Shown in pieces: positions 20,655 to 56,579 of a DNA stretch of 64,000 nt. A program made the position numbers and the translations under genes. Source of the stretch: Oedothorax gibbosus (lineage: Eukaryota); contig CM033278.1 of assembly GCA_019343175.1 (NCBI GenBank), positions 14,865,400 to 14,929,399 of the forward strand, given 5' to 3'. How positions within the stretch are numbered: the first letter of the stretch is position 1; every line of letters begins with the position of its first letter. The notes beneath the pieces were generated by a model. The model was given only the letters and a program-made list of their open reading frames with translations, was not told the origin of the DNA and made no database searches.

Positions 20655-21897
20655 TATATGAAAGATATTCAACAGTGTATTTTTAGCTTCCACACTACGT
20701 TTATAACGTAAAAAGTGAAAGGTATTATAATCGTTCAGTCCGTCTGTCTGTCCGTCCGTCACCCACTTTCATAGCCCAAACTACAAATGCTACGGACAAG
20801 TGTGATGCGTCAAAAATTTCAGCGCATCGAAATTATAATACATTGAAAATTTCAGAAAAGAATTCGAATTTGAAGAACTTTAATTAATTAAAAACCTGCA
20901 AAATTTAATGCTCATTTAAAATGCATAGGAAGCCATTTTTATTGGAATTAAATCACCATTGCCATTCGCAACAATCGCTCGATAAACTTTAATTGTTTAG
21001 ACAATAAATTAAAATAAATTTATTTTTGAGACATCGATCAGTTTGAAATGACGTCCAATATATTTCACTACGAGATTCTTTGTACGTTGATATGAAATAT
21101 TTTTATTATGTTTAAAGGCGAGGAATATTACATATTTATTCTTTGAAATATAAATTAATTTTTGCAAACAATAGGTAATAATTATTTAATTTTCGAAATA
21201 AAATAAATGAAACTAGCCAAATTTAGCATGTAAATGTTTAATATAGAATTAATTCTGTGTTTGGCGCCTTGTTACCTGTTAAACAGAAACTGTTGTGTGG
21301 AAGCGGGTTAAGTGACAGATTCTGTTACAAACCTACTTGTTTTGAGGATGAGAGTTTTTTCTTCTTCTGAATCGAATGAGTTTGTTGAAAAAGAATGTAG
21401 GATATACGATGGTACTTCTAAAATATATATAAATATATTCACATGATTAGTTTTTTTCGTTTAGGTAAGTTACCTTACCAACACTCTACGCCACCGTATC
21501 TGAGGTGTATACAATTTACAATTTTTATTTAACTTTCACAAATATCTTACTTTTAGCTCATTATAATTCTTTCTTCGAAATATAAATAAATTTAGTATAC
21601 GATAATGAATAATTATTGAATTTTCCAAAGAAAATAAATTTAACTAGCCAAATTTAGCGTGAAATGTTTAATGTACTTTTTCCTGCTGAGCACAATCACA
21701 AATGTTGTGTGGAAGCGATGTAAGTAACAGATCTGTTGCAAACCTGCTTGTTATGTATTGCTTTGTCAAATCTAAACTCGATTAGTAAGCGTTAGCGTCC
21801 TAATGAGAGTAGTAGGGCCAAACTACCAGCTGAAGGACCACAAAGCGGTCAAAAAGAAATTGCGCAGCTATTCCAGGGCAGTGGCGGATCTAGCCAT

Positions 21898-21898
<1 letters not shown>

Positions 21899-21928
<30 letters not shown>
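21899..21928. repeat. poly(C) homopolymer (~29 nt) preceded by a CAGTGGCGGATCTAGCCATGGGG motif
   Basis: A C-run read directly from the sequence; in an AT-rich context. Confidence 0.9.
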
Positions 21929-22109
21929 TCAAGTTCTGTTGACCTTCTTTTTTTATTTTTGAAAACAAAATTAAGACAAAAATTTTAATTTATCTTCTTT
22001 TTCAACCAAATTTTTTGATAAAGCGTTAGAGCAGATAACTATTTTTACAGTTTATAGAAAAGTATTCAACTTTTGTTTTTTGCATTTGTTTGTCGGGTTT
22101 TTTTTATGA

Positions 22110-22400
22110 GTTCACAAATGAAGAGCTGAGTGGAAGAACGTGCTGACATTTTTGAAAAAATTGAGATTTTTGTGTCAATGATCATGTTATTACCTGCTTT
22201 AAACATAACAGCTTTCAATTTTTTAGAAAACATTCGATTTCGTATATTTTTCGCATACGAAGTTGGTAGGTGCACGGGTTTTCATCACTTTTTCAATGGA
22301 AGAACGTGCTAAGGATCCTTGGCATGTTCTTCCACCGAAATCGCCCGATTCCGGAACGATCGTTTATTAGTGGAAGAACGTGCTAAGTGACACGTTTGCG
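22110..22400 (+). repeat. ~300-bp segment with 4 copies of the subterminal motif GTGGAAGAACGTGCTAAGTGACA; inverted homologue of 30020-30310
   Basis: Motif copies at 22127, 22296, 22322 (reverse complement) and 22367; the start GAAGAGCTGAGTGGAAGAACGTGCTGACATTTTTG matches the reverse complement of the 30310 end. Confidence 0.45.
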
Positions 22401-23774
22401 GAAAATTTTCAGACTTTCGCTTGCATTAATAGCAAAACAAATGGTTCTTTTGTATTTTTAATCAAAAAGAATTCAACAAAATGTAATTAATGTTTCCTAA
22501 TTAACTTTAATTATTAAATATAATCAATGAAATTAAATTTATATTGCGTAAAACTTTGTTTTCAGTTCATTTAGCAAAATAGGGGAAAAAATGCATTTTG
22601 ATTTTAAATTTAAACAGAGTTAAAGGTTTTAACATTTTATAAAATGTCGTCTGATTTTTATTGTAATAAACATAGATAATTTAGCAGCGAACAGATGGTA
22701 TAATTAAAACAAAGTTGCACCTGCTCTATGGAGATGGCAGTTCGCAGTTCGCGTTAAAACAACATTGCACCGAACATTCAAAGCATCTGGTTTGTTTAAA
22801 AAAAATGAATTATGGGTACAAAAATCGTTTTAAAGCCATTTTACGTTTGATCCCTAAGGCTATCGAACGCATTTTGTGCAATGTCCTAAACTCCTAAAAT
22901 TATTAAAATGGAATTAAGAAGTAAGCGGAAAGCTGAATTTTTGCTTGAAAGTGTGAATAAAAGCTTATACGGTAAGTACAAATTTAATCAAGATATTGCT
23001 TTGTTATGTAAAACTAAAATATTTTTATAATAATTGGTGTAAAAATAAAGTGACAAAGTATAAAACGTTATAAGTTCTTAATATTTATTTTAAAATATCG
23101 ATGACTTTAAAAAAGTACTATGCATCACGATTGTAAAAATAAATTGTTTAAACTTTAAACGATCATGTTCTACTGTTGTAGAAATGCTGTAAATTAGAGT
23201 AGCTTTCTTAAAATTGATTAAACCCTTAATTGAAAAGGAGAAAGAAAAACGTAAATAACCTTAGGGTCTATATCTTGCCATACAAGTTATTTTTTCTTTT
23301 TTTTAATATCAAAGTTTGTTTTTAAATTCGACTATTCTTATCTAAAAACTATTTTAAAATTTATTTTGCAAAAACTTACATCTCGTATTATTATCTTTTT
23401 TATAAGTCTTTTAAATTTAATATTTATTTTATTCACATGCATTTGTGTTTCTTTTACTATCTTTTTGTATACTTTTTATTAAGTTGATTTCTCTTATTAT
23501 TCTTCAAAGTATTTAGTTTATAATTTCAGTGATAATGGTATTTTTTAAAAAATATTTTCAATTAAAAACTTACTCATCTAACATTAAGCAAGAAGTTCTA
23601 AAATAACTTATATAATCTACTTTCTTTTAACTTAAATACTCAAAGAAATCCTTATAGTAGGGACAGACGGACGAACAAAAAGTACAAGATAGGTGACTGA
23701 TATCTTAAAAAAACTAGGGATGTGTAACACTATATATCAATACGCTCATTTTAAGATATATACCTTATAAAGTA

Positions 23775-24100
23775 TTTTCAATAACTTTCAAACCTAAAAA
23801 GTTATATGGCAGCTACTCCTTGCACATGCACAATATTGTAGAAAACTTTATTTTGACGTCCGACTAGTACAGGGAACACGTGTATCAAATTAGAAGTCTG
23901 TATCTATTTTCGTTGTTCAGCAATACCTTTAAAACCCAAAAAAGTTTATAGCAGCCCCTACTTGCACATGCGCAATTTTCTAGAAAACCTTATTATGACG
24001 TCCAACAGGAACTAGAAACCCGTGTACTAAATTTGAAGTCCGTAGCTCTTTTATTTTAAACTGTAAAGTAGTTTCAGACAGACAGACGGATCAATGTAAA
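23775..24100. repeat. two tandem ~165-bp units of a dispersed repeat (also at 16850-17030 reverse-complemented and 20720-20830)
   Basis: Shared core GGCAGCTACTCCTTGCACATGCACAAT; the units are ~80% identical. Confidence 0.4.
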
Positions 24101-24639
24101 AAAAAACAATTTTTTAGAATGAGCACCCTCCAAAACGTGTAGAAAGCACAAAATCTTCATTTTGGATTATTGACCCCTACCGCAATAATTTTATTACCTT
24201 ATATTTTATATTAGGTAATTGAAAGTAATAACTTTAAAAATTGGACGGGTACAAATTAAGTTGGGGGGGGGGGGGGGTAGTAGGACGTACGGACAGAAAC
24301 AAAAAAGCAGACGTACAGGCAGGTGGCCAAACACTATACATTGTAGTCATCTAGTTTTTTACTTTCGAACCAAAAAAAAAAGAATTTTTAAAATCAGGAA
24401 CTTTTGGATCGGGAATTGAAAGGGATATGGACGGACGGACAAAATGATGGACGGACAGGCAAACGATTAATAAGTATAAAAGAGATCTGTGAAGTTCTAT
24501 CTTCCAAACAGAAAAAGAACTTTGAAAATAGGAAGGTTAGTACAGAAATTATGAAACGTTTATGGATCAAATTTACCTAAAAAATGTCACTTGACCAAGG
24601 GCGGATCCAGGGTGACAATTTGGGGGGGGGGGGAACTTA

Positions 24640-25747
24640 TCTATATACATAAAAGGCAACTTCCGTTTGTTTGTTTGTTTGTATAAGACACGAGATGTAA
24701 AGAACCACGCAACAGATCGTCACGAAATTTGGCACAAAAATTCATCTCATCTCCGGAACAAACATAGGCTAAGAATTTATCGTATCAAACTATTCCTTCT
24801 ATCGTTTTTGAACGTTTTTATTCGAATTTTCTGAAAAAAACTACACCACTTTGGCTCAAATCCGATCTTTTTTTACTTTCCTGATGCCATCGGCTGAAAA
24901 AATTAAATAAAACTTTTAACGAAAACATTTAAAATTGAAAATGTTTATTTTATTCTATTGTCATTACCTTCAGAAACTAATTTCATTATTTGAAAAATAA
25001 TTGACATGTTTCAAGTGACGTAATTCAGCCAGTCTCCATTCCCGGATTTTATTGTGGGTTTATTTGATGATTTTTTCATTGATTTTTCTGTTGACTGCAT
25101 GTATGCATATATTTAAGCAATAAATGTATAGTTAAGCTATTACTGAACTATGATGGTTAATAAAGGCCATCGCACTAGAGCTGCAGATTAGTGCTTTATG
25201 TATTTATTTTTTCGCCAAATACGTTGCCAAACTCGCCAAATTATAAACTAAAACTCGCCAAATGGGCAATTTCTTTTATAAATAATTTATAAGCTGGTCG
25301 GTTGTACGAAGGTCATTGTGTTAGAGCTGTATAATGGGTGTGTTTATAGCTATATCTATTTTCTCGCCAAATTATTTCCCAAAACGCGCCAAATGAGCTA
25401 AAAGGTTTTATGTATTTATGAGGGAATTGTGATGACATTTATGAGTGAATTTTTTAAAATAAATGTTTGAGACTATTTAAAGATTTATATGTTTTTCCAT
25501 TTTTAATTCTTACTGATTATTTTTTACTTAAATGTGTATTATTTTTAATTTGAGCTTCTTATCAAAGGTATTTTTGAAATTAATATAATCATTACTATAT
25601 CCAAGTTGGGTAATTAAATGGAAAATTACTGGGTAATCTTCATATCTTATGTAACTAAAATGAAAGAAAAAAAATAGTTCAATTGACTGTTAAATTATTT
25701 TTCAACCTCTACCTGTACAACGTCGGGTATAACAGCTAGTAATAAAT
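24640..25747 (+). mobile_element. Helitron-like non-autonomous element, copy 2 (internal ~300 bp deletion)
   Basis: Same termini as copy 1: A|TCTATATACAT...CAGCTAG|T; collinear with 5690-6483 and 4841-5120 reverse-complemented. Confidence 0.5.
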
Positions 25748-25780
25748 AAATAAAAATAATTTTTAGCTAAAATTATTTTT

Positions 25781-25865
25781 AATTACAATTATTTTTAATT
25801 ACAATTATTTTTAATTACAATTATTTTTAATTACAATTATGTTTAATTACAATTATTTTTAATTA
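25781..25865. repeat. 16-bp tandem repeat (TTACAATTATTTTTAA)x5
   Basis: Read directly from the sequence. Confidence 0.85.
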
Positions 25866-26500
25866 ACATTGTTTTAAATAAAATTAATTTTGAATTTATT
25901 TTTCCATTGTAAATGCAGTTTTTTACTATTAATTTAGTATGTATTACTAATTACTTTTTATAAACATTAATTAGTTTGTATTTTACATAACTCATATTTG
26001 TATTACTTAATAGATAATTAATGTCTTATTTTTTGAATAAAAATGGGGTTGTGTGTGTGTGTGTTTCACGGAGGATCTGGCAATAGCTCTGCGGTTTTGT
26101 TTTCATGTCTCTCGAATTACTGTTGTTTTGGTATTCGGGAGTAAATTTCCGAAGAGAATGTTTTAGTTGTTAATTTTTTTAAATTCCAACTTCTTTCAAT
26201 GCAAGATTTCCTTGACAAACGATTAAAACAACCAACAGTACAGCAAGAAGTTGTAATTTAAAAAAAAAATAACAAAACTTAGAAATCTCAATTTCGAATA
26301 GCAACAAAAGTAATTTGAGAGACACGAAAACAAAACCGCAGAGCTATTGCCAGATCCTCCGTGAAACAACCCCATTAAGGGTAACAATTAAGAAAAATTT
26401 AATTATAGAATGTTTTTATTTAAAATTTAACTACTTATATAATTTAAATCACCTGATTTGTTGTACAGAAATTAAACGACAAGCTTCTTCTAATATTAAA

Positions 26501-27879
26501 TCTATATACATAAAAGGCAATTTCCGTTTGTTTGTATAAGACACGAGATCTAAAGAACCACGCAACAGATCGTTACGAAATTTGGCACAAAAATTCATCT
26601 CATCTCCGGAACAAACATAGGCTAAGAATTTTTTGAATCAGAACATTCCTTCTATCATTTTCGAACGTTTTTATGCGAATTTTCTGAAAAAACTACACCA
26701 CTTTGGCTCAAATCCGATCTTTTTTTACTTTCCTGATGCCATCGGCTGAAAAAATTAAATAAAACTTTTAACGAAAACATTTAAAATTGAAAATGTTTAT
26801 TTTATTCTGTTGCCATTACCTTCAGAAACTAATTTCATTATTTGAAAAATAATTGACATGTTTCAAGTGACGTAATTCCGCCAGTCTCCATTCCCGGATT
26901 TTATTGTGGGTTTATTTGATGTGATTTTTTCATTGATTTTTCTGTTGACTGCATGTATGCATATTTAAGCAATAAATGTATAGTTAAGCTATTACTGAAC
27001 TATGATGGTTAATAAAGGCCATTGCACTAGAGCTACATATTAGTGTTTTATGTATTTATTTTTTCGCCAAATACGTTGCCAAACTCGCCAAATTATTAAC
27101 TAAAACTCGCCAAATGGGCAATTTCTTTTATAAATAATTTATAATCTGGTCGGTTGTTCGAAGGTCATTGTGTTAGAGCTGTATAATGGGTGTGTTTGTA
27201 GCTATATATATTTTCTTGCCAAATTATTTCCCAATACGCGCCAAAGGAGCTAAATGGTTTTATGTATTTATGAGGGAATTGTGATGACATTTATGAGTGC
27301 ATTTTATAGCGTATTTTTCATTTTGGAATTTTAAGGCAATGAAACGGGATTTTATACTTTATAAAGAGCGGGAACAATAACATAAGTTTATGATCCTATA
27401 ACAGGTTATATGGTACACATATTTGGAACGATTTGATAATTTTTAATCCATGCGAAGAACTGGTATAAATTTCTTAACTTTTCAGCATTTGTTTTGAATT
27501 ATGGTAGAAATTTGTACTGCTTATATTGTATTTATATCTATAAAGTGTCCAAAAAAAGTTACTTAATTTGTTATAGAACTCCCTTGATTTGCGTTAAAAT
27601 AAATGTTTGAGACCCTTTAAAGATTTAGCTGTTTTTCCATTTTTAATTCTTACTGATTATTTTTTACTTAAATATGTATTCTTTTTAATTTGAGCTTCTT
27701 ATCAAAGGTATTTTTGAAATTAATATTAATCATTACTATATCCAAGTTGGGTTATTAAATGGAAAATTACTGGGTAATCTTCATATCTTATGTAACTAAA
27801 ATGAAAGAAAAAAATAGTTAAATTGACTGTTAAATTATTTTTCCACCTCTACCCGTGCAACGTCGGGTATAACAGCTAG
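26501..27879 (+). mobile_element. Helitron-like non-autonomous element, copy 3
   Basis: A|TCTATATACATAAAAGGCAA...ACCCGTGCAACGTCGGGTATAACAGCTAG|T; most complete copy. Confidence 0.5.
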
Positions 27880-28950
27880 TTTAATTATAAAATGATTTGT
27901 GTATAAATAATTTTAACATTTATTTAGTTTATAAAAACAGTAGTATATTTAACATATTTCAAAACTTAATTATTTAACTATACTGGTAGTTAATGAACAC
28001 ATTTAATTAAATAGTAATTATTAAAATATTAATCAATATTCTATCTAAATAAAAAAAAAACCTTCTTGATTTGCATAAGAAGTTTTTATGTATCCATTTT
28101 AAATAACTACAACTATGGCAACCAGTCGCCAATAGCCCTCCTATAGCTCTAGTGCGACGATAATTCAACATAACCCTCATCATTTATGTCGTTAAAATAT
28201 ATAAAAATAGTAGCTAGTTTTTATAAAACATGTACTAAAATTTTAAACAGCAATTAAAATGTAATGAAAACAGAAAGCTTATTATAAATATTAAATACAT
28301 AATACATCTCAATGAAATAAATGTTAATCGTGCAACAAATTGCAGTTTTGATGCATTATCATTAATCTCGTTAATCATTTTAATATCATTGAGTACAGGA
28401 AATATCAGAAAATGTTAAAAATTGGAACTTACTCATTGATTAGATGAAAAAACCTAAAAACTATTCTTCTTATTCTTACTCGTATGACATCTATTTTGAT
28501 CCTATAAATGTAATTGAGACATACGAGACAAAAAGGCGCGAAAAACTCCGATTGAAGCATTGAGTCACCTGCTTAGACGCCACATTTATTCCAAAAGAAA
28601 AAAAAACCACCCGTAATATGGTCACTTTGGTTATCAGTTTAAAAAATCCAAGTAAAAAAATCAAAATCTTGTTCGCACGAAACAAGCAACTCATAAAAAA
28701 ACAGTACAAATGAAAAAAAAAATCGACGCCACACGATATTTTTTCAGACTTGCCGTTTTCTTTTTGTAACCGATTCGAGGCGTTTTTCCGTTTTCTTCAA
28801 AAATAAAAGTGTTATACAAAAGCCGTAAGATTTATTACGCCAGCTGCAAATGTTTAGACATTTTTTTAGAACGATTTTTAAATGAAATTCATAATATTGG
28901 TCACGTTGGCTCCACCGTTCGTCATCGGTAGTTTGCTTTTTAAGTATACT

Positions 28951-29262
28951 ATAGTTTAGTTTGAAATATCGTCGCACTAGAGCCACACGAGCGCTATTGG
29001 CGACCGGCGTCATAATTTAGAACCACAGTAAGGTGACGGAGCCGACATCTGAGTAGGCACCCAACGCAACCGATAAGGTAGACATTGTACGCAGCGTCGG
29101 GACTTTGGAGCAGATTTAACGTGTACTTCCGCTACACGGGGTATTATTCATCATACATTTTTGGCTGCACGGGCCGTTTATAGGTCGGCAGTTATTTTGG
29201 CGATGTCCGAACCTGGGACCTTCTGCATACAAGGCGAACGCCTTAACCGACTGGGCTCCCCA
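28951..29262 (-). repeat. tRNA-derived SINE family S1, full-length copy
   Basis: Reverse complement starts GGGGAGCCCAGTCGGTTAAGGCGTTCGCCTTGTATGCAGAAGGTCCCAGGTTCG (tRNA-like); tail ...CGCACTAGAGC + CTAAACTAAAC. Confidence 0.55.
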
Positions 29263-30019
29263 GCCTCTTAAGTATGCAATAGCTTTAAGGTTTCGGTTAA
29301 CCGTCTTTATACCTTTATGGTCAAAACATATATTATTAATATTAGGGCTCTTTGGAAAAATTTTATTGTTGACAAAATTTTAAATTGACTACATTAATTT
29401 GTGTCTGACGCGTAACAATAAACATACTCATATTCATACTCGCTACAGATACTTTACAGTAGAAATTGAGATAGAAAAAAGCGCGAAAAACTCCTAACTT
29501 ATAGTATACTTATTTCACTTGTATTAAGCAAAATGAAAACCCTAAAAATGAAATTAAAAAAATAGTCATAGTGGAATTTCTTTGATTTATTAACGAACAA
29601 ATTGCACTATTATACTTGAAAACGAATTCAAATATATATGTCAATATTTTATTTCTATGGGTTTTTTTTTATACTTCCTTCCTATTCGAGAGGATAGCCG
29701 TCGCCATAAAAAATGTATCTAAAATCTTATTCCCGCCAAAATTGCGATTGGCTAAAAAATAAATCCGAAGGGGGGGGGGGGTATTTCTTTTTTTAACATT
29801 GCGTAATAACCTGTTCCCCCAAAGCGCCCGAGCCGTAATATTTTTTTTCTATGTTCTAGTTCTAAGTTGAGAATGCAAGGAGTTGTAGTACAAATATAAA
29901 TATTTGTAAAAAATAAAAACATTTCTTTACAAGTCGATTTTATCTAGTATGAATTTTAAGATTTTGGGGGGGGGGGGGAATTTCCCCCTTTTCCTCCCGT
30001 GGATCCGCTACTGCACTTG

Positions 30020-30310
30020 ACACGTTCTTCAACAAAGCGGCTGGCTAAAATCTGAAGCACTTCGGAGGAAGAACGTGCCAAGTGCATGAGGTGTCAAGCG
30101 CGTTTTGTAAATGACGCGTTATGACGTAAATTACGGCTAAGCCAAAAGCCACCAAGCATTTTGAAGAACCAAACTAAAATATCATGCAAAAAAAACTGTG
30201 ATTTTGTGAATGACAGAAAAGTTGCAAACTAAAAACTTTGAAGCTCATTATCTCGTTTTCACATTTTTGTCACTTAGCACGTTCTTCCACTAAGCTCTTC
30301 AAATCTTTGA
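30020..30310 (-). repeat. inverted homologue of 22110-22400 with the same subterminal motif
   Basis: A perfect 25-bp TAGTGGAAGAACGTGCTAAGTGACA at 30278-30302 is the reverse complement of 22367-22391; further motif copies at 30020 and 30062. Confidence 0.45.
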
Positions 30311-31263
30311 AAGTCACAATAAAATGAAGAAAAGGAATAACGAAAACTAGCCAATCACAAAATTCCGCGTGAATAAGATTTGGGAAATATTTTTTATTTT
30401 TATTTATTTGGGGGTTATTGGCGCCGATTATATTCCACACGTGCTATCTAACGATGAATATTTTGTGAACGTTTAAGGGTTTTAGTTTGTTTACATTATC
30501 CAAGTAAAAATAAGTGTACTTCAATTCGGGAGTTTTCGAGCTTTTTCTCTACTATCAAATATCATAAGAGCAAGATTGGAAAATAAGAGTAAGTTATAAG
30601 CTTCTATATTTAACCAATAAGTTCTTTTTTTTGCAATTTCCTCAATGATACAAAATAATATATGTTAAAATTTTTGAAGTTGCTGACTTATAATATTTGT
30701 GAAGGTGGCATTTTAAAGACTATTATGTGGATTAGGTTAGTTTGAATTATCGTCGCACTAAAGCTGGGGGTCCCGCTTTAGGTTGACCACCTAACCGGGA
30801 CATATGCCTAGCACCCCAGAGCCCTTGGTCACGAAAGCTGAATTGGGCACGGCAGGCCTTGGCCCACTAATGGGCTGTTGCGCTGAGGAGTTTAGTTTTT
30901 TAGTTTAGTTTAATTAATTAGTTAGTTTCTAACAAATTACTACGTGATTTTCAAGATATTCAGTCATTGTTTGCCTTGTTAATAAGTTAGCAACTTCGCA
31001 TCTTCAAAACAAAAAAAAATTGAATTAACTTTTTATTTATTATTTTCATGAAATACTTCTCTAATACCTGTTTCAAACCTGTTGTTGTATACACTAATTT
31101 CTTAAAAACTAATTTTTCTGTAATTAGTTTTGTATTTAGTATACTAAGTAGTTAAATTTTCAATAAAAACATGCTATAACAAATTGATTTTTCTTATTTA
31201 TTTTACTTAATTTTTATTTAAAAAAGCATTATTTATCTATCTAACAATACAAACATTGTTATG

Positions 31264-31535
31264 TTAGGTTAGATTAGTTTCAATTATTGTCGCACTAGAG
31301 TTAACCGAGGGCTTGGCGGCGGGTGTCGTAATTTAGAACCACAATCAAATGACAAGCCGACACCTGAGTAGGCACCCAACAAAACCGTTAAGGGTGACAT
31401 CGTACGCAGCTTCGGGACTTTGGAGCATATTTGACGTGTACTCCCTCTACACGGGGTATTATTCGTCGGACATTTTTGGCTGCACGGCCGTTTTATAGGT
31501 CGGAGTTATTTTGGCGATGCCCGGACCCAGGGCCG
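31264..31535 (-). repeat. SINE family S1 copy (tRNA-like head truncated); tail TTAGGTTAG
   Basis: Collinear with 28951-29262; further partial copies at 30725-30770, 36225-36300 and 49937-49995. Confidence 0.5.
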
Positions 31536-32267: not shown

Positions 32268-33445
32268 ATCGATCTAGTCCAGGCAACGAAGAGTTATGGA
32301 GGGAAAGTTTTGGAACACAATTTTTGACTTTGTAACTTTGTTTGGACTAGTTAGGAGATGAACATATCAAAAATCCCCGCCCCTAGCCCCTGAGCCGAAG
32401 GGAGGAGAGGGGGTTAAATGTCCCATTTTTCGATTTTTTGCTTATATCTCGAAAACTATGCGTCCTACCGATTTAATTGTAATACACAAAATGAAAGCTG
32501 ATTAAATTTGCTACAAGTTTCACCCCTCAAGTGTTATAATATCTTGTATAGTTTTCGAGATATCCGCTCTTGAAAGTCTGTAATTTTGGAGAAAACATTT
32601 TTTCCCCCACATTTTTCCTCTTTTTTGACCAAATAACTCTTCAATAATGCACCGAAACACTAAATATTGACCCTAGAGTGGTAGAGAATTTAATTCTTTT
32701 CAATAATATATTTTACTTTACTATTTTATCTATTTTAATTCAAATTTTAAAGCAGTTTCAGTATTGAGCGAAGAGGGATTGTCAGTCCCATAGAGCTAAT
32801 ACATTAGTTTTGAAATCACAACTTTTGCAAAAAAATTACTTTGTCATGTTATCAAATTTTTACCAGGTATGGGAATCATCATAATATCAATTTAAAACAA
32901 AATTGCAAAGAAAATAACATCCGGTTATTTAATTATTAATTGTTAAAGTTTTAAAAATAGTGTCGCCATCTGCTGTATATTTTTGGAATTATAAAATTTC
33001 AAAAATATATAATTAAATAACTAGATAACATTTTCGTTTCAAATTTGTTTCATTTCGATGTTATGTTGTTTCCCGTACCTGGGGAAAAAGGGCTGTCATG
33101 GCAAAGCAATACATCTGCGGAAGTTGTGATTCCAAAACTAATGCAATAGCTCTATGGAACTGACAATCCCTCTTATGTACACTTATTCTATACTGAATGT
33201 TTAAACAAAATCCAGATACTCATTTTGTAGGCACGCTGTTACTTTAATATTTTATCTATTTTTATATTCTATTGTTATCTATTTCATTTCATTCGTCGGA
33301 CCCCAGTAAGAAAACAGTCAGATGATCATCCTGTTCTTCTTTATCTTCCTAGTCAACTTGAGAGACCCCATTGAGGCAAGTCCCCTGGCAATTTTGGAAT
33401 GCTGAGGAACATTTGAGACTTACTTTTTTACAGCTACACTTTGAG
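32268..33445. repeat. left arm of the large palindrome (inverted duplication)
   Basis: Reverse complement matches 34178-36207 except for an 812-bp insertion and a homopolymer expansion in the right arm. Confidence 0.7.
32772..33174. mobile_element. foldback-type element (palindromic MITE), copy a
   Basis: AAGAGGGATTGTCAGTCCCATAGAGC...GCTCTATGGAACTGACAATCCCTCTT; its internal halves are mutually inverted. Confidence 0.5.
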
Positions 33446-34020
33446 CTGGAACAGTGTTTCATGCATCTGCAGAAAATTATTTTCAAAATATCGTCATGCG
33501 TTGCTGCTAACTCACTGTGCACTGGGACCAGGCAGTTGTTCTCAATCTTCCACTCATACATCTCAGGAGGCAGGTCATTTTCCAGCCACAGCTGAACTTG
33601 GTGGAATGTTCGGAGGGAATGCTGTTTTACTGTTCCCTCGGTGGGAGGTAAACAAGAGATATCAGTCTTGATGGTGGCCACTGATCTTAAGAATCACTTA
33701 TATCTGTAGGCATTGAGGGAGGCCTCTTTCGTTAGAGCCCCATACCACCTCAAAGCGCAGGTTTCGTCTGCCTTTTGAACCTGATCAGTGGTTGAGGAAA
33801 GGTCCGAAAAGCTGCTGCTTTCTGGACCTATGGCGACTTCAGATAAAGCTTCGCAAATGCGACCTTGCTTTTTCGAAATGCGGAAGATGTAGTGTCGCAT
33901 CCAGTAAATGCGTGCAAAAATAGCACGTCCTTTAAACCCAGTTGCTGAAGCTCTTAGGACGAGAAGAAAGAATCCTGTGTCTTCCCACGTGCAGGCTTTA
34001 AGTAATGCCCTTACGCGCAT
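33349..34020 (-). pseudogene. C-terminal fragment of the same FEN1/XPG-CXC ORF family as 2413-3733, at the palindrome centre
   Basis: ..FSDLSSTTDQVQKAD.. / LPPTEGTVKQHSLRTFHQVQLW...CRCMKHCSSSKCSCKKVSLKCSSAFQNCQGTCLNG parallels FSKFLSSTTKLN / LPPTSDASQFHSLRTYHQVMAW + CKCIKSCLDACSCRK.. of the first copy. Confidence 0.5.
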
Positions 34021-34466
34021 CAGCTTTAGCCATCAAGATTCAAGAGGACTATAAGGTCGACATCTTCATTCTTCACCTACAATGCCGACAGCTTGTGTTT
34101 TCGACATTTCCACAGCTGTATCCAAGTTGATCCAATTGTTCTCAAGCTTCACCTTAAGTATGTTGATGATGATGTATGTTGATGAGACTGTGCCAGCTTA
34201 AAGTGTAGCTGCAAAAAAGCAAGTCTCAAATGTTCTTCAGCATGCCGAAATTGCCAGGGGACTTGCCTCAATGGGGTCTCTCAAGTTGACTTCGAAGATA
34301 AAGAAGAACAGGAGGATCATCTGACAGTTTTCCTACTGGGGTCCAAAGAATGAAATGAAATAGATAACATAGAATATGAAAATAGATAAAATATTAAAGT
34401 AACAGCGTGCCTACAAAATGAGTATCTGGGTTTTATTTAGACATTCAGTATAGAATAAGTGTACAT

Positions 34467-35698
34467 AAGAGGGATTGTCAGTTCTATAGAGCTAATGCAT
34501 TAGTTTTGGAATCATAACTTCCACAGATGCATTGCTTTGCCATGTTAGCCCTTTTCCCCCAGGTACGGGAATCAACATAACATCGAAACAGTAGCGCCGG
34601 AACTTATTATTTAGAGGTATGGCAAGAAATTCCTCAATCTACCCCCTCCTCCCACTCTAGATGTTTTAAATATATAGTATTATATTATTTAACAAATAAG
34701 TATTTTTCAATAAAATTAAAAAATTCCTAATAGAATACGCACAGTGATTTTTCAAAGCCAGAATACAGACGTGACTTTTGGGACACCCTGTACTATATTA
34801 TAAAAAACATTTCAATGTTACCGACTAGAAAAAGATGTGATTTAAATAAATTAGTTGGTTGGTTGGTTGGTAGACATATATATTCAGGTTTGTGTGCTTG
34901 GTCAGCGACCCGCTTATAAACCTTATAAATTAATTTATTTCTCAATGTCTGAAATTAAACAGCTATTTGGAAATATAAAATGCAGAAAGCAAACAAACTC
35001 TTTTATCTATATAGAAAATGTTAGTTAACATAAAAAGTTAATATTTAAAACAAAAAAATATGTATATATAATGATACATCATTAATTATGCCTAAAGGTT
35101 GATTTCTTTTATTTGTTTTAGAAACAAACGCTTCAATTATATTCTCAATGTTTATATTTGACAAAAGCCCATTACTACAGATCCCCAGTAGGGGAATGTG
35201 TATACGTGTTATCTTTCTCGGTGTGGTGTGGTTGTGAGGTAGGATATGTGACAAAAATATTTGCAAGTTTAATTGGTTTTGTTGGATTTTTTTCACATGG
35301 TCACTTTTGGGTTTGATTTTGTAAAATGGAAAAAAACGCATAACATATAATCTGTGCAAAAGCTAGTAAGGCAACTGCCATACCGGTTCCGGCGCCACTG
35401 CATCGAAATGAAACAAATTTGAAACGAAAATGTGATCTAGTTATTTAATTATATATTTTTGAAATTTTATAATTCCAAAAATATACAGCAGATGGCGACA
35501 CTATTTTTAAAACTTTAACAATTTATAATTAAATAACCGGATGTTATTTTTGTTTCAATTTAGTTTTAAATTGATATTATGATGATTCCCATACCTGGTA
35601 AAAATTTGATAACATGACAAAGTAATTTTTTTGCAAAAGTTGTGATTTCAAAACTAATGTATTAGCTCTATGGGACTGACAATCCCTATTCGCTCAAT
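34467..35698. mobile_element. foldback-type element, copy b (in the right palindrome arm, interrupted by the hAT-like MITE)
   Basis: Same termini as copy a, reverse orientation. Confidence 0.5.
34589..35400. mobile_element. hAT-like MITE (812 bp) with 8-bp target-site duplication CATCGAAA
   Basis: CATCGAAA|CAGTAGCGCCGGAAC...GTTCCGGCGCCACTG|CATCGAAA; the uninterrupted left arm (33050-33060) shows a single copy of the target. Confidence 0.7.
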
Positions 35699-47344: not shown

Positions 47345-48147
47345 TTTATTTTTGGCCTACTTTTCTTTTTTTTAATTCAAAAGAATTAAAAAAATGAAAA
47401 AGTAGGTATTGACATGTGGTCGATGTCCGTCTGTCTGTCCGTCCGTACCCCCCTTCCAAAATCGGTTCTATCAATCGGATCTTAAAAATTCTTTATTTGT
47501 TAGAAAGCTATGACCTCAGAGACCCAACTTTCATACTTTTTGTCCGCCTGTCTGTACGTCCGGACGGACATAAATCTACTATCTGTCGGTGAATTTCCCA
47601 TTGAATTAGCATTGAAATTAAATTTTGAGTCATTTAAATCACTGTTGCCAAATTAACAATGGCATGAGAAACTATTTAAAAATATTTGAAGCAAAATAAT
47701 TTTTGCATGAATCAGTTTCAAATGACGTCATAAAATGTAGCACAATGTGATTCTTTGATTGTTCATTAATTGTTTACAAGAAAGCGGAAGGCATATTTTT
47801 TGCATACAATTATGCTTAGTTTTAATTTACATTTTTTATTTTTTTAATGTAGTTTGGAGTAGTTTCATTACTTTTGTTATTAATAAATATTGAATTATTC
47901 TTTGAACTACAAATAAATCGTGCAGACGATAAATTATATTAAGTTAATTTGAGAAAGAATATTAGGGAAAATAGTTGATTTTGGCTTTAGAAGTTTAAAA
48001 TTATAGCTGGATGTTGTGTTTAGCGATTTTTTTTCGAATGTGTATAAATCTAGTGTAGAAACGGTTGTTGATGATATTTACTGTTAGGAACTTAGTTGTT
48101 TTCCTATTAGAATTTCAGTAAGTATTTAAGTAACAGGAAAGTAGGCT
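47345..48147. repeat. single-unit paralogue of element 13931-15598, lying in a ribokinase intron
   Basis: Collinear with 13931-14000 + one tandem unit + 15060-15598. Confidence 0.55.
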
Positions 48148-49367: not shown

Positions 49368-50349
49368 CTGAAACAATTTTTTTTAACAATGATTGGTACT
49401 GCTTTTTTTAACAACGCACTGGTTTATTACATTCTCAGCTAAAAATATATCTTTTGGATGCAATTGAATTCATTGAATTGCTCCTGGCACAAAAACAATG
49501 AATTCTCACCTGAAACAATGGAGGTTTTTTAACAATGATTAAAATAAAAATATTTAGCTGCAATAAATAAGGGCTGTATTTCAACATAAAATAATTTTCT
49601 GTTATTTTCCCACGTGCTGATTACCCAAACTTCTAAGCAGTAAATAAATAATGTTTAAATATCTATAATTATTTCAACAATGATTAAAATAAAAATATTC
49701 AGCTGCAATAAAGTTTAAATATCTATGATGTAAAAAGATTTGGGGCACTCTCATTCAGACTAATGCACATCAAAACATTTATTTCCACAGAATTTTAAGC
49801 TTGTGTGATAAAACTACAATTTCGACTCAACTATGACAGGCTTTGTGTTATCCTAAAATAAACAAAAATGCAATTATTTTATAATATAAAATATTAAAAT
49901 AAAAAAGACATATTAGTTAAATTAAACAAATTTTAACAAATAGGTTAGGTTAGTTTGAATTATCGTCGCACTAGAGCTACACGAGGGCTATTTTTAACAA
50001 ATAGGAAGCAAGCCTTGACTAAGTTATATTTAACTCTGAAAAAGTCGTGATATTTTCTCTTTAAAGTCTAATGAAAAAAAATAGAACCTTCCCTGATTAA
50101 AAGAAAAGTACCTTTATATGGCTTTTTTTTAGAACCTTTGAAACAATTACATAAAAAATTAAGTATTTTTTTAAGTTTCAATTTGCAACAAATCAATGCA
50201 ACTGCAATGCATAATAACAATTTGTAAAATTGACACATTGGCATTGTAATTAAAATAAATGTCTGCATGAAATTTGGTTTTTAATGCAAGAGAATAGTAA
50301 AAAATTAAGTTAAAATTGTAAAAAAATTTAAGAAGGGTCTGTCATATAC

Positions 50350-50412: not shown

Positions 50413-50499
50413 CTAGAAGGGAAAAAAATAATCAGAAAAGTGTGACAATACAGCGAGTTGAATAAAGGTAACATAGATATTTTTACTTATAAATGTTAC

Positions 50500-51767: not shown

Positions 51768-51858
51768 CTAAAAATAAGAGTAAGAATTATTTTTAAGATG
51801 AAAGAGAGGAAGAATGGAATAAAAAATATATTTTTTAAAAAAATTAAAAAAGCAAAAC

Positions 51859-51905
51859 CTTATTAAATCCGAAATGCAACCACCAACTACTACAATTGAA
51901 GACAT
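51859..51905 (-). CDS. ribokinase exon 1 (ATG at 51903-51905)
   Basis: MSSIVVVGGCISDLI(S), matching human RBKS MSSIVVVGSCMTDLVS; donor GTTTTG. Confidence 0.7.
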
Positions 51906-52413: not shown

Positions 52414-52606
52414 TTGGTTGGTACATGTATTTCAGGCTTGTGTGCTTGATCAGAGACCCGCTTATAAACCTTCGTCAAGTAAGACAGACACAGACAGAAT
52501 TTTTACTGAGACAGAAAAATTACACGAAGGCGGGAAGGGAATCGAACCCACACCCGGTGCAGTGAGCACTGAGCAGACTGTTAGCGTAATGGTCAGCGAA
52601 GAGCCC
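52414..52606 (-). repeat. SINE family S2 copy with a tRNA-like head (reverse complement shows a GGGTTCGATTCCC T-arm)
   Basis: Shared 5' ~130 bp with 18284-18462. Confidence 0.5.
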
Positions 52607-55600
52607 TCCATCCCTCTGTGTAAAGAGATGCGACAATGGAGCCCAAAATTGTCCAAGCCGGGTTGCCAATGAGAAACCGCCAGGGAGAAACTGGTCAGGC
52701 TTGTTTGAGCTTGGCGGTTTAACGCTTATCGTACATGTCTTGTACTAATCCTGCCCGGGAAGAGTATTTAGTTTCGCTTTAACTTCTGCAACTACTGATT
52801 TTCGAAATTTAATGCAGGAGTTAAATGTTTAAAATGAAGTGACACGATACTTTGTTTTTAGATTTCAGCAGACGAGTTTGTTAATTGTTTACAAAAAAGA
52901 ATCTTCGCCAAGAGACGCCAACAAGTAGCCAACTAGAAAAGCACGCGAATCAATGTTTATACACGTATTTCAAGAAAATACGAAGATTCTTTGAATAAAT
53001 AAAGGTGGAAAGATTTCTACACACATAAAGTGAATAAATACTGTTTTTTTAAAACGAAATGAAGCAATATTTTATGCATAATATGTTTTAATAGCCATCA
53101 TAAATACATTCAGAAAGCGTACTGTTACAGGAAAACTGTCTTTTTTTTAACTACTAAAGTATTTTTGAAGAAAATTATAGTTTTATAATATTCTTTACAC
53201 ATTTAGGAAACCATAAATAAACATTAAAAAAGTTGTACTTTCCCTAAATGTTATGGATTGTTGACGATTGCAAAGGCTACTTTTTTTCCTATGCTAACTC
53301 TATGAGGGACAAAACTATTCCGCCTCAGGGGGACAATTTTGGTCCTCGTCCAATCAGGAGCGGCTGGCAATATGTCGCATCTCTTTCACACAGTAGGGAT
53401 GTAGGGCTCTAGCCTACGTAGGTTAAATTATTTAAAAAAAATCAAACCATGCTGACATGCCTTCTATACAACTATGGTGACTTTGTAAATTTTACGACAT
53501 CGCCACGAAGTCTTGACATTGGATTGGTTTCTTGAACAAACGTTGTACTAGAGCTACGCTACGTTGTACTAGGCGAAGGCACCATTTGCCAATATTTTAT
53601 TATTAGTTAATTTTTTTATAACGGGGTTCATCTCCTCAATTAAGTCATTTTACGGTGGTTTAAAATTACGAGGTCCACCGTAAATAGCCCTTGTCTGTCC
53701 TCGAATAGTTATGCAGCTGATACGACACGCTAATTCAATAAAAGTCTGATCTCCCAGGATAATTCAATTATTCGAAGAAACTCCCAGGCTAACTTTAATT
53801 ACTCTAAGAAACTTTAAGGATAATTTTTCTTTAAAGCTAGCGCATTTTAAAACCCGAGCTACATATAAACCCTAGCTCTTTTTATAACCCTTTACCTACT
53901 GACGGTACTTAAGTACCACTTAAAAAGCTGCTGTTTCACTTTTCATTGTTCAATTTGAAGAAAACGGGGAAAGATGGAACTTTTTGATTAACATGTTTGG
54001 TTTCAGCACATTAAAGTCTATAAAGATAAAGTAAATTCTTCCAACTTATTGTGATGCACTGACAGCACTTGTAAGTACCACTTAAAAAACCGTTGTTTTA
54101 CTTTTCATTGTTCGTTTGAGGGAAAATAGATGATAGTAGGCTTTCAATAATGCAATACGCGGTTTCAACACATTAAAGAATAAAAAGGAAAAACATAAGC
54201 ATATAACAAAATGTCATTGTTAGTCAGTGTAATTTAGTAAATATAAGTAGAATGGAGGGAAAAATGAAATAAATTGGGGACATAAAGTGCATTTTATATC
54301 TTATCTATTTTTACCCTTTTATATTCTAATTAATTGCAATAGGTATCATTAAAATATTTTAAGACAAATAATTAAAATTAAAACTTATTTCGGTGCATAA
54401 AGGGTCAAGGAACACAGGAATCGCACATTAACATAAAACAATAGATACATTTTTAGAATATGAATAATAAACATTCTTTATACGTAGGTACAGATGCAAA
54501 ATCGAACAATAAATATTAACCATTTATTTTCACAATAAAACTACAGAATAATTTCATTTGAACGTATTAATCGCTGTCCTCTTGTGAGTAAATAAGTTCA
54601 TCTGATGCTGAATCAGATGAAGTACTACTTGTTTCCGTTTCCTTCTTAGTCCTGAATGGAATTAACCATCCCACGGGTGAATTTCCCAGTGACATGCTTT
54701 TAATAGAGGTATGCAGATATCTTGTGATGATCATGATGGCAACCTAAAATAAATTAACTTAACGACTCTCATTTAAAAGATATTTCATGATTATAATTTA
54801 CCTACAAAAAACTTAAGTTTGAATACTGTATTTGTCACTCCCTCATGCTGCCCTTGCATGTTTTTCAAACTTTGTACATCATAAAATAGAATGTTTTAAA
54901 TAAATAATTTTTTAAGGTATTAACTCTAATCATTCTCAACGTATTTATACTATAATTATAGGGTTGTCCAGCGAGTGGCAACTGCCTCATAGCAACCATC
55001 ATAGCAACCATCTCTAAGGATAAACAAACCACATGTTGGCCATTTGTTACTGTGCTAATCTTTTCTTTTGATCAGAATTTCGAGCGTTTTTCAGATATAA
55101 TTTCGCAATGGAGCTTAGAGCACTTGAGTAAGGATGAGAAAGAGAGATATAACATGAAAATTAGTTATCTTCTGTCTGGTTCATTAAGCAGTTTCCAATT
55201 GATTGCATATTTTAATATACTCATTTCGTTGACAACAAGAATGTTCCGCGGCGAAAGTGCTCTATCAATCTTTAATAGACAAAAATTAAATTTTTTCAAG
55301 GTAGTATTAGAATTTTAATAATTTGTAAGCTTAAATTTATTTAAAAAAATCAAAGTAATACAAAGTAATTTTAAAATTTAGTCATTTAAAATTTAGTTCT
55401 AAATTAAGTCTTAATAAATGTAAGGTAATAAGTGTAGTGTGGGGTTGTTTCATGTCGTGGATGGCAATAGCCCCAACTCCAACAGTTTGTTGCCTGGAAT
55501 TACTTATGTTTTGGTATTCGAAAATAAGTTTTCTAAGAATATTTTTCTTAATAAATTTTTAAATGCCAATTTCTTGCTGTGCTGTTGGTTGATCAAGACA

Positions 55601-55759
55601 TGTGTTAAGAAAGCTTGCATAGAAAGAAACAATTATTTTCATCTAAATCGGTCATTTTGAGAGTGAAACCGAAGCAACCGAGGAAATCCAGTACGCATAC
55701 AAATAAAAAAAAAGCGTTACATCATCTGAAACATTCCCATTCATTTAATTAGTAATTAA

Positions 55760-55880
55760 TAATAATTGAACTAGTAATTATTTATTAGTTAATAATTAAC
55801 TAGTAATTATTTATTAGTTAATAATTAACTAGTAATTATTTAATTATTTATTAGTCAAAAATTAACTATTAATTATTTAT
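55760..55880. repeat. ~30-bp AT-rich tandem repeat (TTAGTTAATAATTAACTAGTAATTATTTAT)x4
   Basis: Read directly from the sequence. Confidence 0.8.
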
Positions 55881-55998
55881 TAGTTAATAATTATAGTTGT
55901 ATAAGATAAATAAATGTTATAATCGATTTTATTTTTAAAAAATTTATTCGCATTAAGCAATTGATATTTGATTGGATAAGTAAAAACCACATGAGTTA

Positions 55999-56018
55999 AC
56001 TAGGGGGGGGGGGGGGGG
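55999..56018. repeat. poly(G) tract (~17 nt), paired with a C6TC5 tract at 56094-56110 and a GCGTATCCAGG motif at 56113-56135
   Basis: Read directly from the sequence. Confidence 0.85.
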
Positions 56019-56579
56019 GTTCAAAGGATAATTCCCTAAAGAAGGGGCTCATCCAATCCAAAATTAAGAAAATAGGGGCCCCTAATGTTGCCTGCCCCCC
56101 TCCCCCTTAAATCAGATCCTGGATACGCCCTTGGCATCGCTAGCTGTCGAAAAAATACTCAACTTTCTTCTTTTGAAAAAAGATGTCTAATTAAATGTGG
56201 AGATTTCAAAATTCAATTCCGAAAATAATGAAAATCAAATAAGCACGACACAAACAGTTAAAAATTATAACAGTTAAGTCTGTTTATCCTTAGGATTCCG
56301 TCAGGTGACGTCAGAGTGGACAGGGCTATAGGGGAGTGTGATTAATTTGTGCTAGCTTCTACAATTGTGAGCATTATAATGTAAATTAACATACAGATTT
56401 CAAACCCTAATTATAAATTTTGGGAATGATTTTAAAGTAAAATTCATAAAAACCACCTTAGAGATTGAAGAATTAATTTCGCTGAAAGATAATAAAATAG
56501 TTTAAGTTAATAATATCGAATCTTAACAACATGATATGTTAACCAGTTTTTAAAAATGCGTGTTACATATATTGGGAGT

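Follow-up and report, generated by a model that had tools for sequence, protein, structure and literature searches.

Background

Transposases of the hAT superfamily combine an RNase-H-like DDE core with a C-terminal hAT dimerisation domain. The elements themselves are characterized by target site duplications (TSDs) of 8 bp, short terminal inverted repeats (TIRs, 10-25 bp) starting with CAG or TAG, and discrete insertion, seen as filled versus empty sites. Tip100, an autonomous hAT transposon of Ipomoea purpurea, is the type element of the 'Tip' group (PMC12511174, PMC3942097), which is defined by transposase phylogeny with Tip100 (PMC3942097). The TIR of Tip100 is CAGGGGCGGAG (PMC12511174). 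Its right end is composed of CAGGGGCGGAGCCAGG-ATTAACCATGC-GGGGGCC (PMC12511174, main text, primer table and Fig. S1), where everything past the first 19 nt, confirmed by a primer, is machine-read figure text. Ends of 100 bp suffice in cis for transposition, and the TSDs generated are 8 bp long (PMC12511174, PMC3942097).

Two shorter elements are also of interest here. BmMITE-13, a 'Pegasus-like' MITE of Bombyx mori, has the TIR CAAGGGCGGATCCAG and an 8-bp TSD (PMC2997013). MPF is a 220-bp non-autonomous hAT element located beside Arabidopsis FLC (PMC2289841).

The window analysed here is a stretch of 64,000 nucleotides of DNA from the dwarf spider Oedothorax gibbosus, with GC content of 31.5%. 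A preliminary description reported a recurrent motif accompanied by long G or C homopolymers at four loci, and all four were found again with minor corrections. Our results leave us highly confident that the motif is the TIR of non-autonomous hAT-superfamily transposons with Tip100-type ends, and that the runs are subterminal tracts expanded by slippage.

Results

Distribution of the motif and of long G/C runs

Eight G/C runs of at least 11 nt are present in the window, against 1.6e-4 expected, which bears out the earlier remark that such homopolymers are surprising at low GC. Five of the eight lie no more than 131 nt inside a verified terminus of the CAGTGGCGG/CAAGGGCGG type; such zones cover 1.6% of the window (binomial P = 6e-8). 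Matches to the 12-mer and 16-mer motifs number 5-6, with 0.6-0.9 expected, and none of 100 shuffles reached the observed number. Chance is no explanation for the occurrence of motif and run. The features of the window are these:

21879-21928, plus strand: solo B-end, consisting of TIR CAGTGGCGGATCTAGC (21879-21894), CCAT, GGGG and C27 (21902-21928)
24588-24595, no strand: left TSD copy, CACTTGAC, 8 bp
24596-30013, minus strand: complete non-autonomous Tip100-like hAT element, 5,418 bp, with TSD and TIRs
24596-24633, plus strand: A-end, consisting of TIR CAAGGGCGGATCCAGG (24596-24611), a 10-nt spacer and G12 from +27 (24622-24633)
24637-25739, plus strand: nested Helitron-like insertion, foreign to the hAT element, 5 nt past the A-end G12
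26500-27881, plus strand: second nested Helitron-like insertion, a copy of that at 24637-25739
29770-29781, plus strand: internal G12, 233 nt inside the B-end terminus
29966-30013, minus strand: B-end, consisting of TIR CAGTAGCGGATCCACG (30013-29998), then GGGGGAAATT, then C13 (plus-strand G13, 29966-29978)
30014-30021, no strand: right TSD copy, CACTTGAC, 8 bp
34589-35400, no strand: hAT-like MITE, 812 bp, TIRs CAGTAGCGCCGGAAC and CAGTGGCGCCGGAAC, perfect TSD and empty site
38020-38803, no strand: hAT-like MITE, 784 bp, TIRs CAGTGGCGGCTCGTG and CAGTGGCGGCCCGTG, degenerate TSD
55494-56133, minus strand: shortened second copy of the family of the 24596 element, A-end only

The remaining three long runs, G15 at 24263, C11 at 36047 and G12 at 29770, are situated away from the termini. 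C11 belongs to another, unrelated repeat. G15 (24263-24277), previously placed 350 bp upstream of the motif at 24596, lies 333 bp upstream; it is outside the hAT element, in a separate repeat family, and goes back to the C6 tract of a satellite-like repeat unrelated to that element.

A complete element at 24596-30013

A search for TSDs around paired sites, proposed in the preliminary description, revealed the identical 8-mer CACTTGAC on both flanks of 24596-30013 (P ~4e-5 at fixed positions). The TIRs of this element are imperfect (CAAGGGCGGATCCAGGG versus CAGTAGCGGATCCACGGG); in the elements of the window, TIRs are 13-15 nt long and start with CAGT or CAAG. The terminus at 24596, followed by G12 exactly as first described, is the A-end, the counterpart of the 3' end of Tip100, and that at 30013 is the B-end; the transposase sense would thus be the minus strand. 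The reverse-strand motif had been put at 30020 with C15 and C12. Its locus is confirmed with the terminus at 30013, as is C12 (29781-29770), while the supposed C15 is C13 (29978-29966). GGGGGAAATTCCCCC in this B-end forms a palindrome. Second subterminal G runs, such as the internal G12, also occur in one metagenome family (L065, L087, L110).

Six-frame translation and tblastn found no coding capacity in the element. It carries nested foreign insertions and measures ~2.9 kb once the two Helitron-like inserts are subtracted. With 5.4 kb including nested inserts, it is not short in the sense of the MITE label (under ~800 bp) and is better called a non-autonomous hAT element. A single 8.1-kb element spanning 21879-30013, suggested by mutual best TIR match, was also considered; this pairing was dropped because its flanks are unlike (TTCCAGGG versus CACTTGAC), whereas 24596 and 30013 share the exact 8-mer.

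Solo ends

Two of the original four loci are solo ends without partner. Partners for 21879 and 56133 were sought in the window by local alignment, by TSD and by a 16-mer allowing at most 3 mismatches, and none was found for either. The first, formerly given as 21882 with C29, holds as a locus but begins at 21879, and its run is C27; palindromes CCATGG and GGGGCCCC are present in this end. The second was described as a reverse-strand motif at 56113-56140 with C6TC5 and G17, and both tracts were located. Its A-end consists of TIR CAAGGGCGTATCCAGG (56133-56118), an 11-nt spacer and G5AG6 from +28 (plus-strand C6TC5, 56095-56106). Further inside are GGGGCCCC at 56075-56082 and C17 from +115 (plus-strand G17, 56003-56019), and deeper in, AT-rich repeats and a palindromic module run collinear with the 24596 element.

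Two MITEs and an empty site

Two nearby hAT-like MITEs were suspected relatives of the motif, a kinship that TSDs, an empty site and matching ends now bear out. Of the starts given for them, 34589 is right and 38008 has to be moved to 38020. Both begin with CAGTRGCG and fit the description of a MITE (short, under ~800 bp, non-coding, with TIRs and TSD). The first is flanked by a perfect 8-bp TSD, CATCGAAA, at 34581-34588 and 35401-35408. Its empty paralogous site, with a single uninterrupted CATCGAAA, lies in the opposite arm of a large inverted repeat, at 33060-33053. The second has a degenerate TSD (TAGTACAG versus TAGAACAC, 6/8, with a 1-nt shift) and C12 from +49 of its right terminus (plus-strand G12, 38744-38755). 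The ...CTCTA-C12 of this 38803 end is resembled by the first MITE, where ...ATCTA precedes an interrupted C tract, CCCCCTCCTCCC, at +54 (34642-34653).

These insertions bear directly on the proposal that motif and homopolymer form a host functional element (an origin, a G-quadruplex regulatory site or a piRNA-cluster landmark) operating without transposition. Runs of at least 15 G could in principle fold into G-quadruplexes, and the region is TE-dense, like piRNA clusters. Against this, TSDs and the empty site demonstrate insertion, each motif copy marks the boundary of an element or, in the same register, a solo end, with runs at element-defined offsets, and the four loci share no conserved spacing or orientation relative to one another. 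The proposal is thus unsupported, and we consider it extremely improbable. The element reading, by which the motif is a transposon TIR, explains the same loci as termini. The suggestion that they are the terminus of an element family is upheld by TSDs, the empty site and matching ends elsewhere; the family was hardly 'unrecognised', its TIR being of Tip100 type and already published for BmMITE-13.

Comparison with described elements

The ends of the spider elements resemble Tip100 in sequence and in layout. The Tip100 TIR CAGGGGCGGAG agrees with CAGTGGCGGAT and CAAGGGCGGAT at 9/11 positions, the spider having T at position 11 where Tip100 has G. The Tip100 right end, CAGGGGCGGAGCCAGG-11 nt-GGGGG, has the architecture and register of the spider A-ends, with the G tract from +27/28, and the 8-bp TSD is common to both. 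The tract itself differs, with G5 in Tip100 against G12 or G5AG6 in the spider. The left end of Tip100 starts with CAGGGGCGGAGGCACATA..., and the comparison rests on its right end versus the A-end. The hosts are a plant and an arachnid, and Tip100 encodes an 808-aa transposase, whereas the spider elements encode none.

BmMITE-13, compared by TIR, TSD and length, matches positions 24596-24610 with all 15 nt of its TIR CAAGGGCGGATCCAG. Like the spider element it is non-coding and has an 8-bp TSD of any sequence, but it is only 263 bp long, versus 5.4 kb (~2.9 kb minus the Helitron-like inserts). For MPF, a plant element unlike those of the spider, the accessible part of the source allows comparison by probe sequence: the probe for siRNAs mapping to one MPF end contains CAGTGGCGGATCC. 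The 8-bp TSD is shared as well. Longer versions of the motif returned primers only in string searches of the literature.

A deletion-derivative hAT family of ~790 bp in GCA_012263305.1 (L096, L160-L167) shares with the spider elements the TIR 16-mer and the asymmetry of A-end and B-end, and each of its ends carries homopolymers of 8-17 nt. It differs in its 5-bp TSDs (8/8 copies), in place of 8-bp ones, and in an A-end G tract starting from +25. A hAT dimerisation domain (PF05699, 35.7 bits) is located between B-end and A-end in this family.

All three hAT traits are found in the window: 8-bp TSDs at 24596-30013 and 34589-35400, short TIRs with the expected start, and discrete insertion at 34589-35400. 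Neither a transposase gene nor a remnant of one was found in the window (the Tip100 C-terminus has no tblastn match there, and six-frame translations are stop-rich), and the elements are therefore non-autonomous. For the same reason their placement in the Tip group rests on Tip100-type termini (CAGGGGCGGAG..., with the right-end 16-mer, 11 nt and G tract), which amounts to resemblance of the ends and not to proof of membership.

End architecture in metagenome contigs

Metagenome contigs stood in for a genome-wide motif scan of O. gibbosus. The sample was defined by exact 16-mer matches and contains, among the matches listed, ~94 eukaryote-like low-GC contigs, dominated by few host-associated projects; these 94 fall into 49 sequence clusters. 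G/C runs of at least 5 nt are found inside the end in 63 of the 94 matches listed and outside it in 6. For runs of at least 7 nt the corresponding numbers are 21 and 0, and for those of at least 10 nt they are 7 and 0. The first tract of four or more G starts at +27 to +30 in 35/94 of the matches listed, or abuts the TIR (offset 15-17). Seven cases among the matches listed are complete short elements, each bounded by one A-end and one B-end and flanked by perfect 8-bp TSDs. The 35 prokaryotic-virus matches to the 16-mer, which served as negative control, contain no run of at least 7 nt. The scan of viral contigs yielded only chance matches in high-GC prokaryotic sequence.

An ungapped alignment of A-ends (spider, Tip100 and 10 from metagenomes) has invariant G28, G30 and G31 and a G29 conserved in at least 90%; positions 18-27 vary. 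The spacing of the tract, fixed from plant to spider, suggests that the G tract at +27/28 may belong to what the transposase recognises.

The same contigs speak to another concern, that the homopolymers are artefacts of sequencing or assembly, such as two-colour poly-G or polishing errors. Exact run lengths are indeed unreliable in PacBio CLR assemblies polished with short reads, and two Argiope assemblies conflict at one locus (G9 versus G11). The assembly used here was, however, built by wtdbg2 from PacBio Sequel reads (bioRxiv 10.1101/2021.02.09.430505). Two-colour poly-G would be expected as G only, in short-read data and confined to the ends of reads or contigs. The runs here lie internally, include C as well as G, and keep conserved offsets within transposon ends. 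Independent metagenome assemblies from Illumina data show the same architecture, as does the Tip100 sequence published with a medaka study (PMC12511174 Fig. S1). We give the artefact explanation, raised as a caution in the preliminary description, practically no credence.

Discussion

Origin and growth of the runs

Mononucleotide tracts are prone to replication slippage. In the mechanism that we propose, the elements would be moved by cut-and-paste through a hAT transposase whose gene lies at another place in the genome, leaving 8-bp TSDs. The A-end begins with a TIR of ~16 nt, continues with ~11 nt of variable, A/T-rich spacer and then has its G tract from +27/28; in the B-end the TIR passes into a G run, after which come a short GC-rich palindrome and a C run. 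The short G/C tracts are inherited components of these ends, and slippage in the AT-rich spider genome has in all likelihood grown them to 12-27 nt. The association of motif and homopolymer would then reflect common descent and slippage, with no separate host signal.

Differences in length between related tracts are found at several levels. Among eight copies of the GCA_012263305.1 element that are 96-99% identical, run lengths differ, at G8-15, C10-17 and G10-14. Of two homologous A-ends in the window, one has G12 (24596) where the other has G5AG6 (56133), and in two arms of one repeat C5TCTCCTC3 (32413-32400) matches C11TC6 (36047-36064). The Argiope locus with G9 in one assembly has G11 in the other.

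Such growth might also affect any short G/C tract in spiders, with no special link to transposon ends. G15 at 24263, from its satellite-like repeat, and C11 at 36047, in another repeat, agree with this. The TAF7 loci of three further spiders, orthologous to the one in the window, contain no Tip100-like 16-mer, and G/C runs occur there in other contexts: runs of 9-21 nt, 1-4 per 21 kb, are present in loci of Argiope, Parasteatoda and Uloborus without the 16-mer. The three runs away from termini and these motif-free spider runs mean that genome-wide expansion of G/C tracts contributes. As a full account, leaving the association to coincidence, it is nevertheless quite unlikely. Coincidence is contradicted by the concentration of 5/8 runs in 1.6% of the window (P = 6e-8), by +27/28 offsets matching both Tip100 and the mode of the 94 matches listed, and by the inside/outside asymmetry (63 versus 6) among the matches listed. 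Expansion is general; the seeds at these ends are element-borne. The long G/C runs by the motif are ordinary mobile-element anatomy and no new genomic signal.

Significance

The four puzzling motif-homopolymer sites resolve into a complete element with nested insertions, a pair of MITEs and two solo ends. The main value of this is annotation, for a spider whose genomic repeats have mostly not been classified, with the artefact and regulatory-signal readings removed. The A-end G-tract register, kept from plant Tip100 to spider and invertebrate ends while the spacer varies, also provides a testable prediction on which parts of an end are read by the transposase. Transposon ends also seem to act as seeds for long G/C homopolymers where the genome is AT-rich, a point relevant to assembly, polishing and microsatellite studies.

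More tentatively, and with the balance of our judgement rather against it, the +27/28 G tract and the module of G run, palindrome and C run could be conserved cis-elements for Tip100-type end recognition, for example as a second protein contact or as structured DNA, kept from plants to arachnids and marine invertebrates. If so, such ends might supply a large part of the G/C mononucleotide microsatellites found in AT-rich animal genomes, because their tracts are slippage-prone.

Other repeats of the window

A SINE origin was examined by tRNA scan, which found no tRNA. The Helitron-like insertion at 24637-25739 has 5'-TC...CTAG-3' ends and a 3' hairpin and is inserted between A and T. A further Helitron-like copy is located on the minus strand at 6485-4839.

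Terminal motif and G/C runs

A conserved motif of about 17 nt, placed beside long G or C homopolymers at four loci in a preliminary description, is found at all four of them in the window, and only the run lengths need small corrections. The C homopolymer at 21879 is indeed long, measuring 27 and not 29 nt; at 30013 the C12 run is present as described and the first C run counts 13 instead of 15 nt. Offsets (+N) run inward from the terminus.

21879, + strand: motif CAGTGGCGGATCTAGC, then CCAT, GGGG, C27
24596, + strand: motif CAAGGGCGGATCCAGG, then 10 nt and G12
30013, - strand: motif CAGTAGCGGATCCACG, ...GGGGGAAATT, then C13; another C12 lies 185 nt deeper
56133, - strand: motif CAAGGGCGTATCCAGG, 11 nt, G5AG6, then GGGGCCCC and C17 from +115
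34589-35400: MITE bounded by terminal inverted repeats (TIRs) CAGTAGCGCCGGAAC and CAGTGGCGCCGGAAC; CATCGAAA (8 bp) is duplicated perfectly on its flanks
38020-38803: MITE of 784 bp; its TIRs are 15 nt long and its duplication is degenerate

The window (GC content 31.5%) contains 5-6 motif matches against 0.6-0.9 expected, a count reached by none of the shuffles, and eight G/C runs of at least 11 nt against 1.6e-4 expected from composition. Of the eight long runs, five fall in the stretches that reach from a verified terminus to 131 nt inward, which together make up 1.6% of the window (P = 6e-8).

Insertions of hAT-type elements

Three lines of evidence within the window identify the motif as the terminus of a transposon. 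Its suggested relation to the nearby hAT-like MITEs is borne out by TIRs, 8-bp duplications and an empty site, and readings of the motif as an origin, a G-quadruplex regulatory site or a piRNA landmark are without support. A large inverted repeat carries the MITE at 34589-35400 in one of its arms; in the opposite arm the MITE's flanking sequence continues unbroken through a single CATCGAAA, an empty site. The arms of this inverted repeat (32295-33455 / 34187-36169) measure about 1.1-1.2 kb and are 90-96% complementary, and the MITE breaks the right one.

The proposed check for target-site duplications (TSDs) around paired motif sites revealed an identical 8-mer, CACTTGAC, preceding 24596 and following 30013 (chance of a match at these fixed positions about 4e-5). 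Because both flanks agree, the 'CAAGGG' and 'CAGTAG' variants pair up as the imperfect TIRs of a single element 5,418 bp long. Pairing of 21879 with 30013 was rejected, as their flanks differ, and a search within the window found no partner ends for 21879 and 56133. Internal modules of the 56133 element are collinear with those that the complete element has on its 24596 side, which makes it a truncated second copy of the same family. The window elements are insertions of non-autonomous hAT-type elements.

End architecture and known relatives

The two termini of these Tip100-like elements differ in their architecture. A-ends (24596, 56133) are composed of the TIR, an A/T-rich spacer of 10-11 nt and a G tract from +27 or +28. 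B-ends (21879, 30013) consist of the TIR, a run of 4-5 G and a C run, with a short palindrome between the two runs (GGGGCCCC or GGGGGAAATTCCCCC); the C run has grown to 27 and 13 nt, respectively.

In a silkworm MITE survey, BmMITE-13 (TIR CAAGGGCGGATCCAG, with an 8-bp TSD of arbitrary sequence) and BmMITE-14 and -16 (TIR CAGTGGCGGATT) are all named 'Pegasus-like' (PMC2997013). Tip100 of Ipomoea purpurea, an autonomous and experimentally active plant hAT element, has TIR CAGGGGCGGAG, and its right end reads, as reverse complement, CAGGGGCGGAGCCAGG-ATTAACCATGC-GGGGG-CC (PMC12511174; taken from the primer table and machine-read text of Fig. S1). It displays the A-end architecture of the spider elements in identical register. 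Tip100 can transpose with ends of only 100 bp, and it duplicates 8 bp on insertion. It serves as type element for 'Tip', the third major hAT group (PMC3942097). PMC2289841 describes a 220-bp Arabidopsis hAT element with 8-bp TSD, where siRNAs at one end were detected by a probe with CAGTGGCGGATCC.

Ends in metagenome contigs

Public metagenome contigs were scanned with the 16-mer TIR query CARKGGCGGATCCAGG, with viral contigs as control. The sample comprises 94 matches among those listed, on eukaryote-like contigs of low GC content that extend 60 nt or more to either side of the match, and 60 nt inside each end were compared with 60 nt outside.

Longest G/C run in 94 metagenome matches among those listed
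Run length; inside; outside
at least 5 nt; 63; 6
at least 7 nt; 21; 0
at least 10 nt; 7; 0

The 35 viral matches, on mostly high-GC contigs, had no run of at least 7 nt. The 94 listed ends group into 49 clusters (70% identity). In 35 of these ends the first G4+ tract begins between +27 and +30; the alternative is a tract abutting the TIR (offset 15-17). When the two spider A-ends, Tip100 and ten metagenome families are aligned without gaps, all rows have G28, G30 and G31, conservation of G29 is 90% or higher, and positions 18-27 are variable, identity of the metagenome rows at positions 1-16 being by construction. Aligned B-ends keep the order TIR, G run, palindrome, C run. Complete short elements among the listed contigs carry one A-end and one B-end each; among these matches, TSDs are perfect 8-bp repeats in seven and match at 7/8 positions in five more.

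A link to transposase is provided by contig L096, where a hAT dimerisation domain lies 355 nt downstream of a B-end (G10...C10; tblastn to Tip100 E = 1.8e-5; PF05699 35.7 bits, cut-off 21.4). Protein search and locus fetch retrieved eight copies of this element of about 790 bp from one assembly (GCA_012263305.1). In every copy the remnant of the hAT domain follows the B-end and precedes the A-end, which makes the A-end the 3' end, as it is in Tip100. The flanking duplications measure 5 bp instead of 8 bp and are perfect in all eight. Such TSDs accompany the CAGGGGCGGATCCAGG TIR in these copies (L160-L167, 8/8 of one family) and in several other families (also L030, L053, L097, L104, L090, L019, L051); elements of this sort are named hAT5 in Repbase. 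As 5-bp and 8-bp TSDs occur under one TIR, this TIR type is common to hAT lineages of differing staggered-cut length.

Instability of run length

The G/C tracts are inherited components of the element ends, with unstable length. The eight GCA_012263305.1 copies are 96-99% identical after collapsing runs, and their B-end runs span G8-15 and C10-17, their A-end runs G10-14. Homologous A-ends in the window carry G12 (24596) against G5AG6 (56133), and MITE ends carry C12 after ...CTCTA (38803 end) against CCCCCTCCTCCC after ...ATCTA (34589 end). The O. gibbosus assembly was built from PacBio Sequel reads with wtdbg2 and polished with PacBio and Illumina data (bioRxiv 10.1101/2021.02.09.430505).

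Long runs also occur in contexts without the motif, and G/C-tract expansion is therefore general in spider genomes, transposon ends being conveniently placed seeds for it. The arms of the large inverted repeat have C5TCTCCTC3 against C11TC6; they also differ as G5A6 against G7A3. C11 at 36047 is within the inverted-repeat element, G12 at 29770 lies 233 nt inside the B-end, and G15 at 24263, outside the hAT element, is the counterpart of a C6 tract in a satellite-like repeat with a (GTCY)n microsatellite and other copies near 14300 and 47440. In the TAF7 loci of Argiope, Parasteatoda and Uloborus, G/C runs of 9-21 nt number 1-4 per 21 kb, and the Tip100-like 16-mer was not found there; one Argiope locus reads G9 or G11 depending on the assembly.

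Proposed mobilization

Judging from known hAT behaviour, a Tip100-like transposase encoded elsewhere would mobilize the elements in trans, excision and integration would involve an 8-bp staggered cut, and replication slippage would lengthen the runs. More speculatively, the transposase may recognize the G tract at +28 and the palindrome of the B-end; the role of such a subterminal G tract, conserved in Tip100-type ends, is a testable idea.

Neighbouring repeats and genes

Two Helitron-like insertions (24637-25739 and 26500-27881) are nested inside the 24596-30013 element, the first beginning 5 nt past the A-end G12. Both are delimited by 5'-TC...CTAG-3', sit between A and T and bear a hairpin at the 3' end. 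The family (about 1.1-1.6 kb) also includes 4839-6485 (-) and, near 5533-5710, an additional incomplete 5' copy; copies start with TCTATATACATAAAAGG after host A and finish ...CCCGTGCAACGTCGGGTATAACAGCTAG before host T, with a short hairpin immediately upstream of CTAG.

At 26062-26368 and 55494-55628 there is a MITE-like palindromic module, about 310 bp in length, whose arms read GGGGTTGTTTCACGGAGGATCTGGCAATAGCTCTGCGG. Because it lies at similar distance inside both A-ends, it may be integral to the hAT family and not a nested insertion. AT-rich repeats arranged in tandem, among them (AATTACAATTATTTTT)n (unit of 16 bp), are found just inside the A-ends of both copies (25733-25908, 55743-55893). 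An inverted-repeat element with ends ...GTCGCCAATAGC(C/G)CTC...CTCTAGTGCGACGA is nested in the 24596-30013 element at 28130-28999, with related pieces at 31255-31527, 49931-49992 and 18708.

The satellite-like repeat (unit about 295 bp) occupies 14005-15193, 47348-47750, 20738-20771 and 24310-24465 (-), with a 4-unit tandem array at 14 kb. Its unit contains a (GTCY)n microsatellite with GTCCGTACCCCCCTTCC at its end, and the copy at 24263 has a 15-nt run in place of the C tract.

TAF7 is encoded by a 408-aa ORF at 40531-41757 (Pfam TAFII55_N), whose 392-aa core is 100% identical to an Oedothorax gibbosus (dwarf spider) protein. The gene (40579-41757, +) is without introns, and a tetraspanin exon lies 16 kb off (57370-58029, -). 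Argiope bruennichi has a tandem pair of TAF7 paralogues 4.7 kb apart (locus L156, 10001-11182 and 15898-17073). A 150-aa ORF at 3281-3733 (-) with weak XPG_N/PIN-like similarity is enclosed by 300-nt inverted repeats (1146-1445 / 4500-4799, 96% complementary) and may be part of another mobile element.
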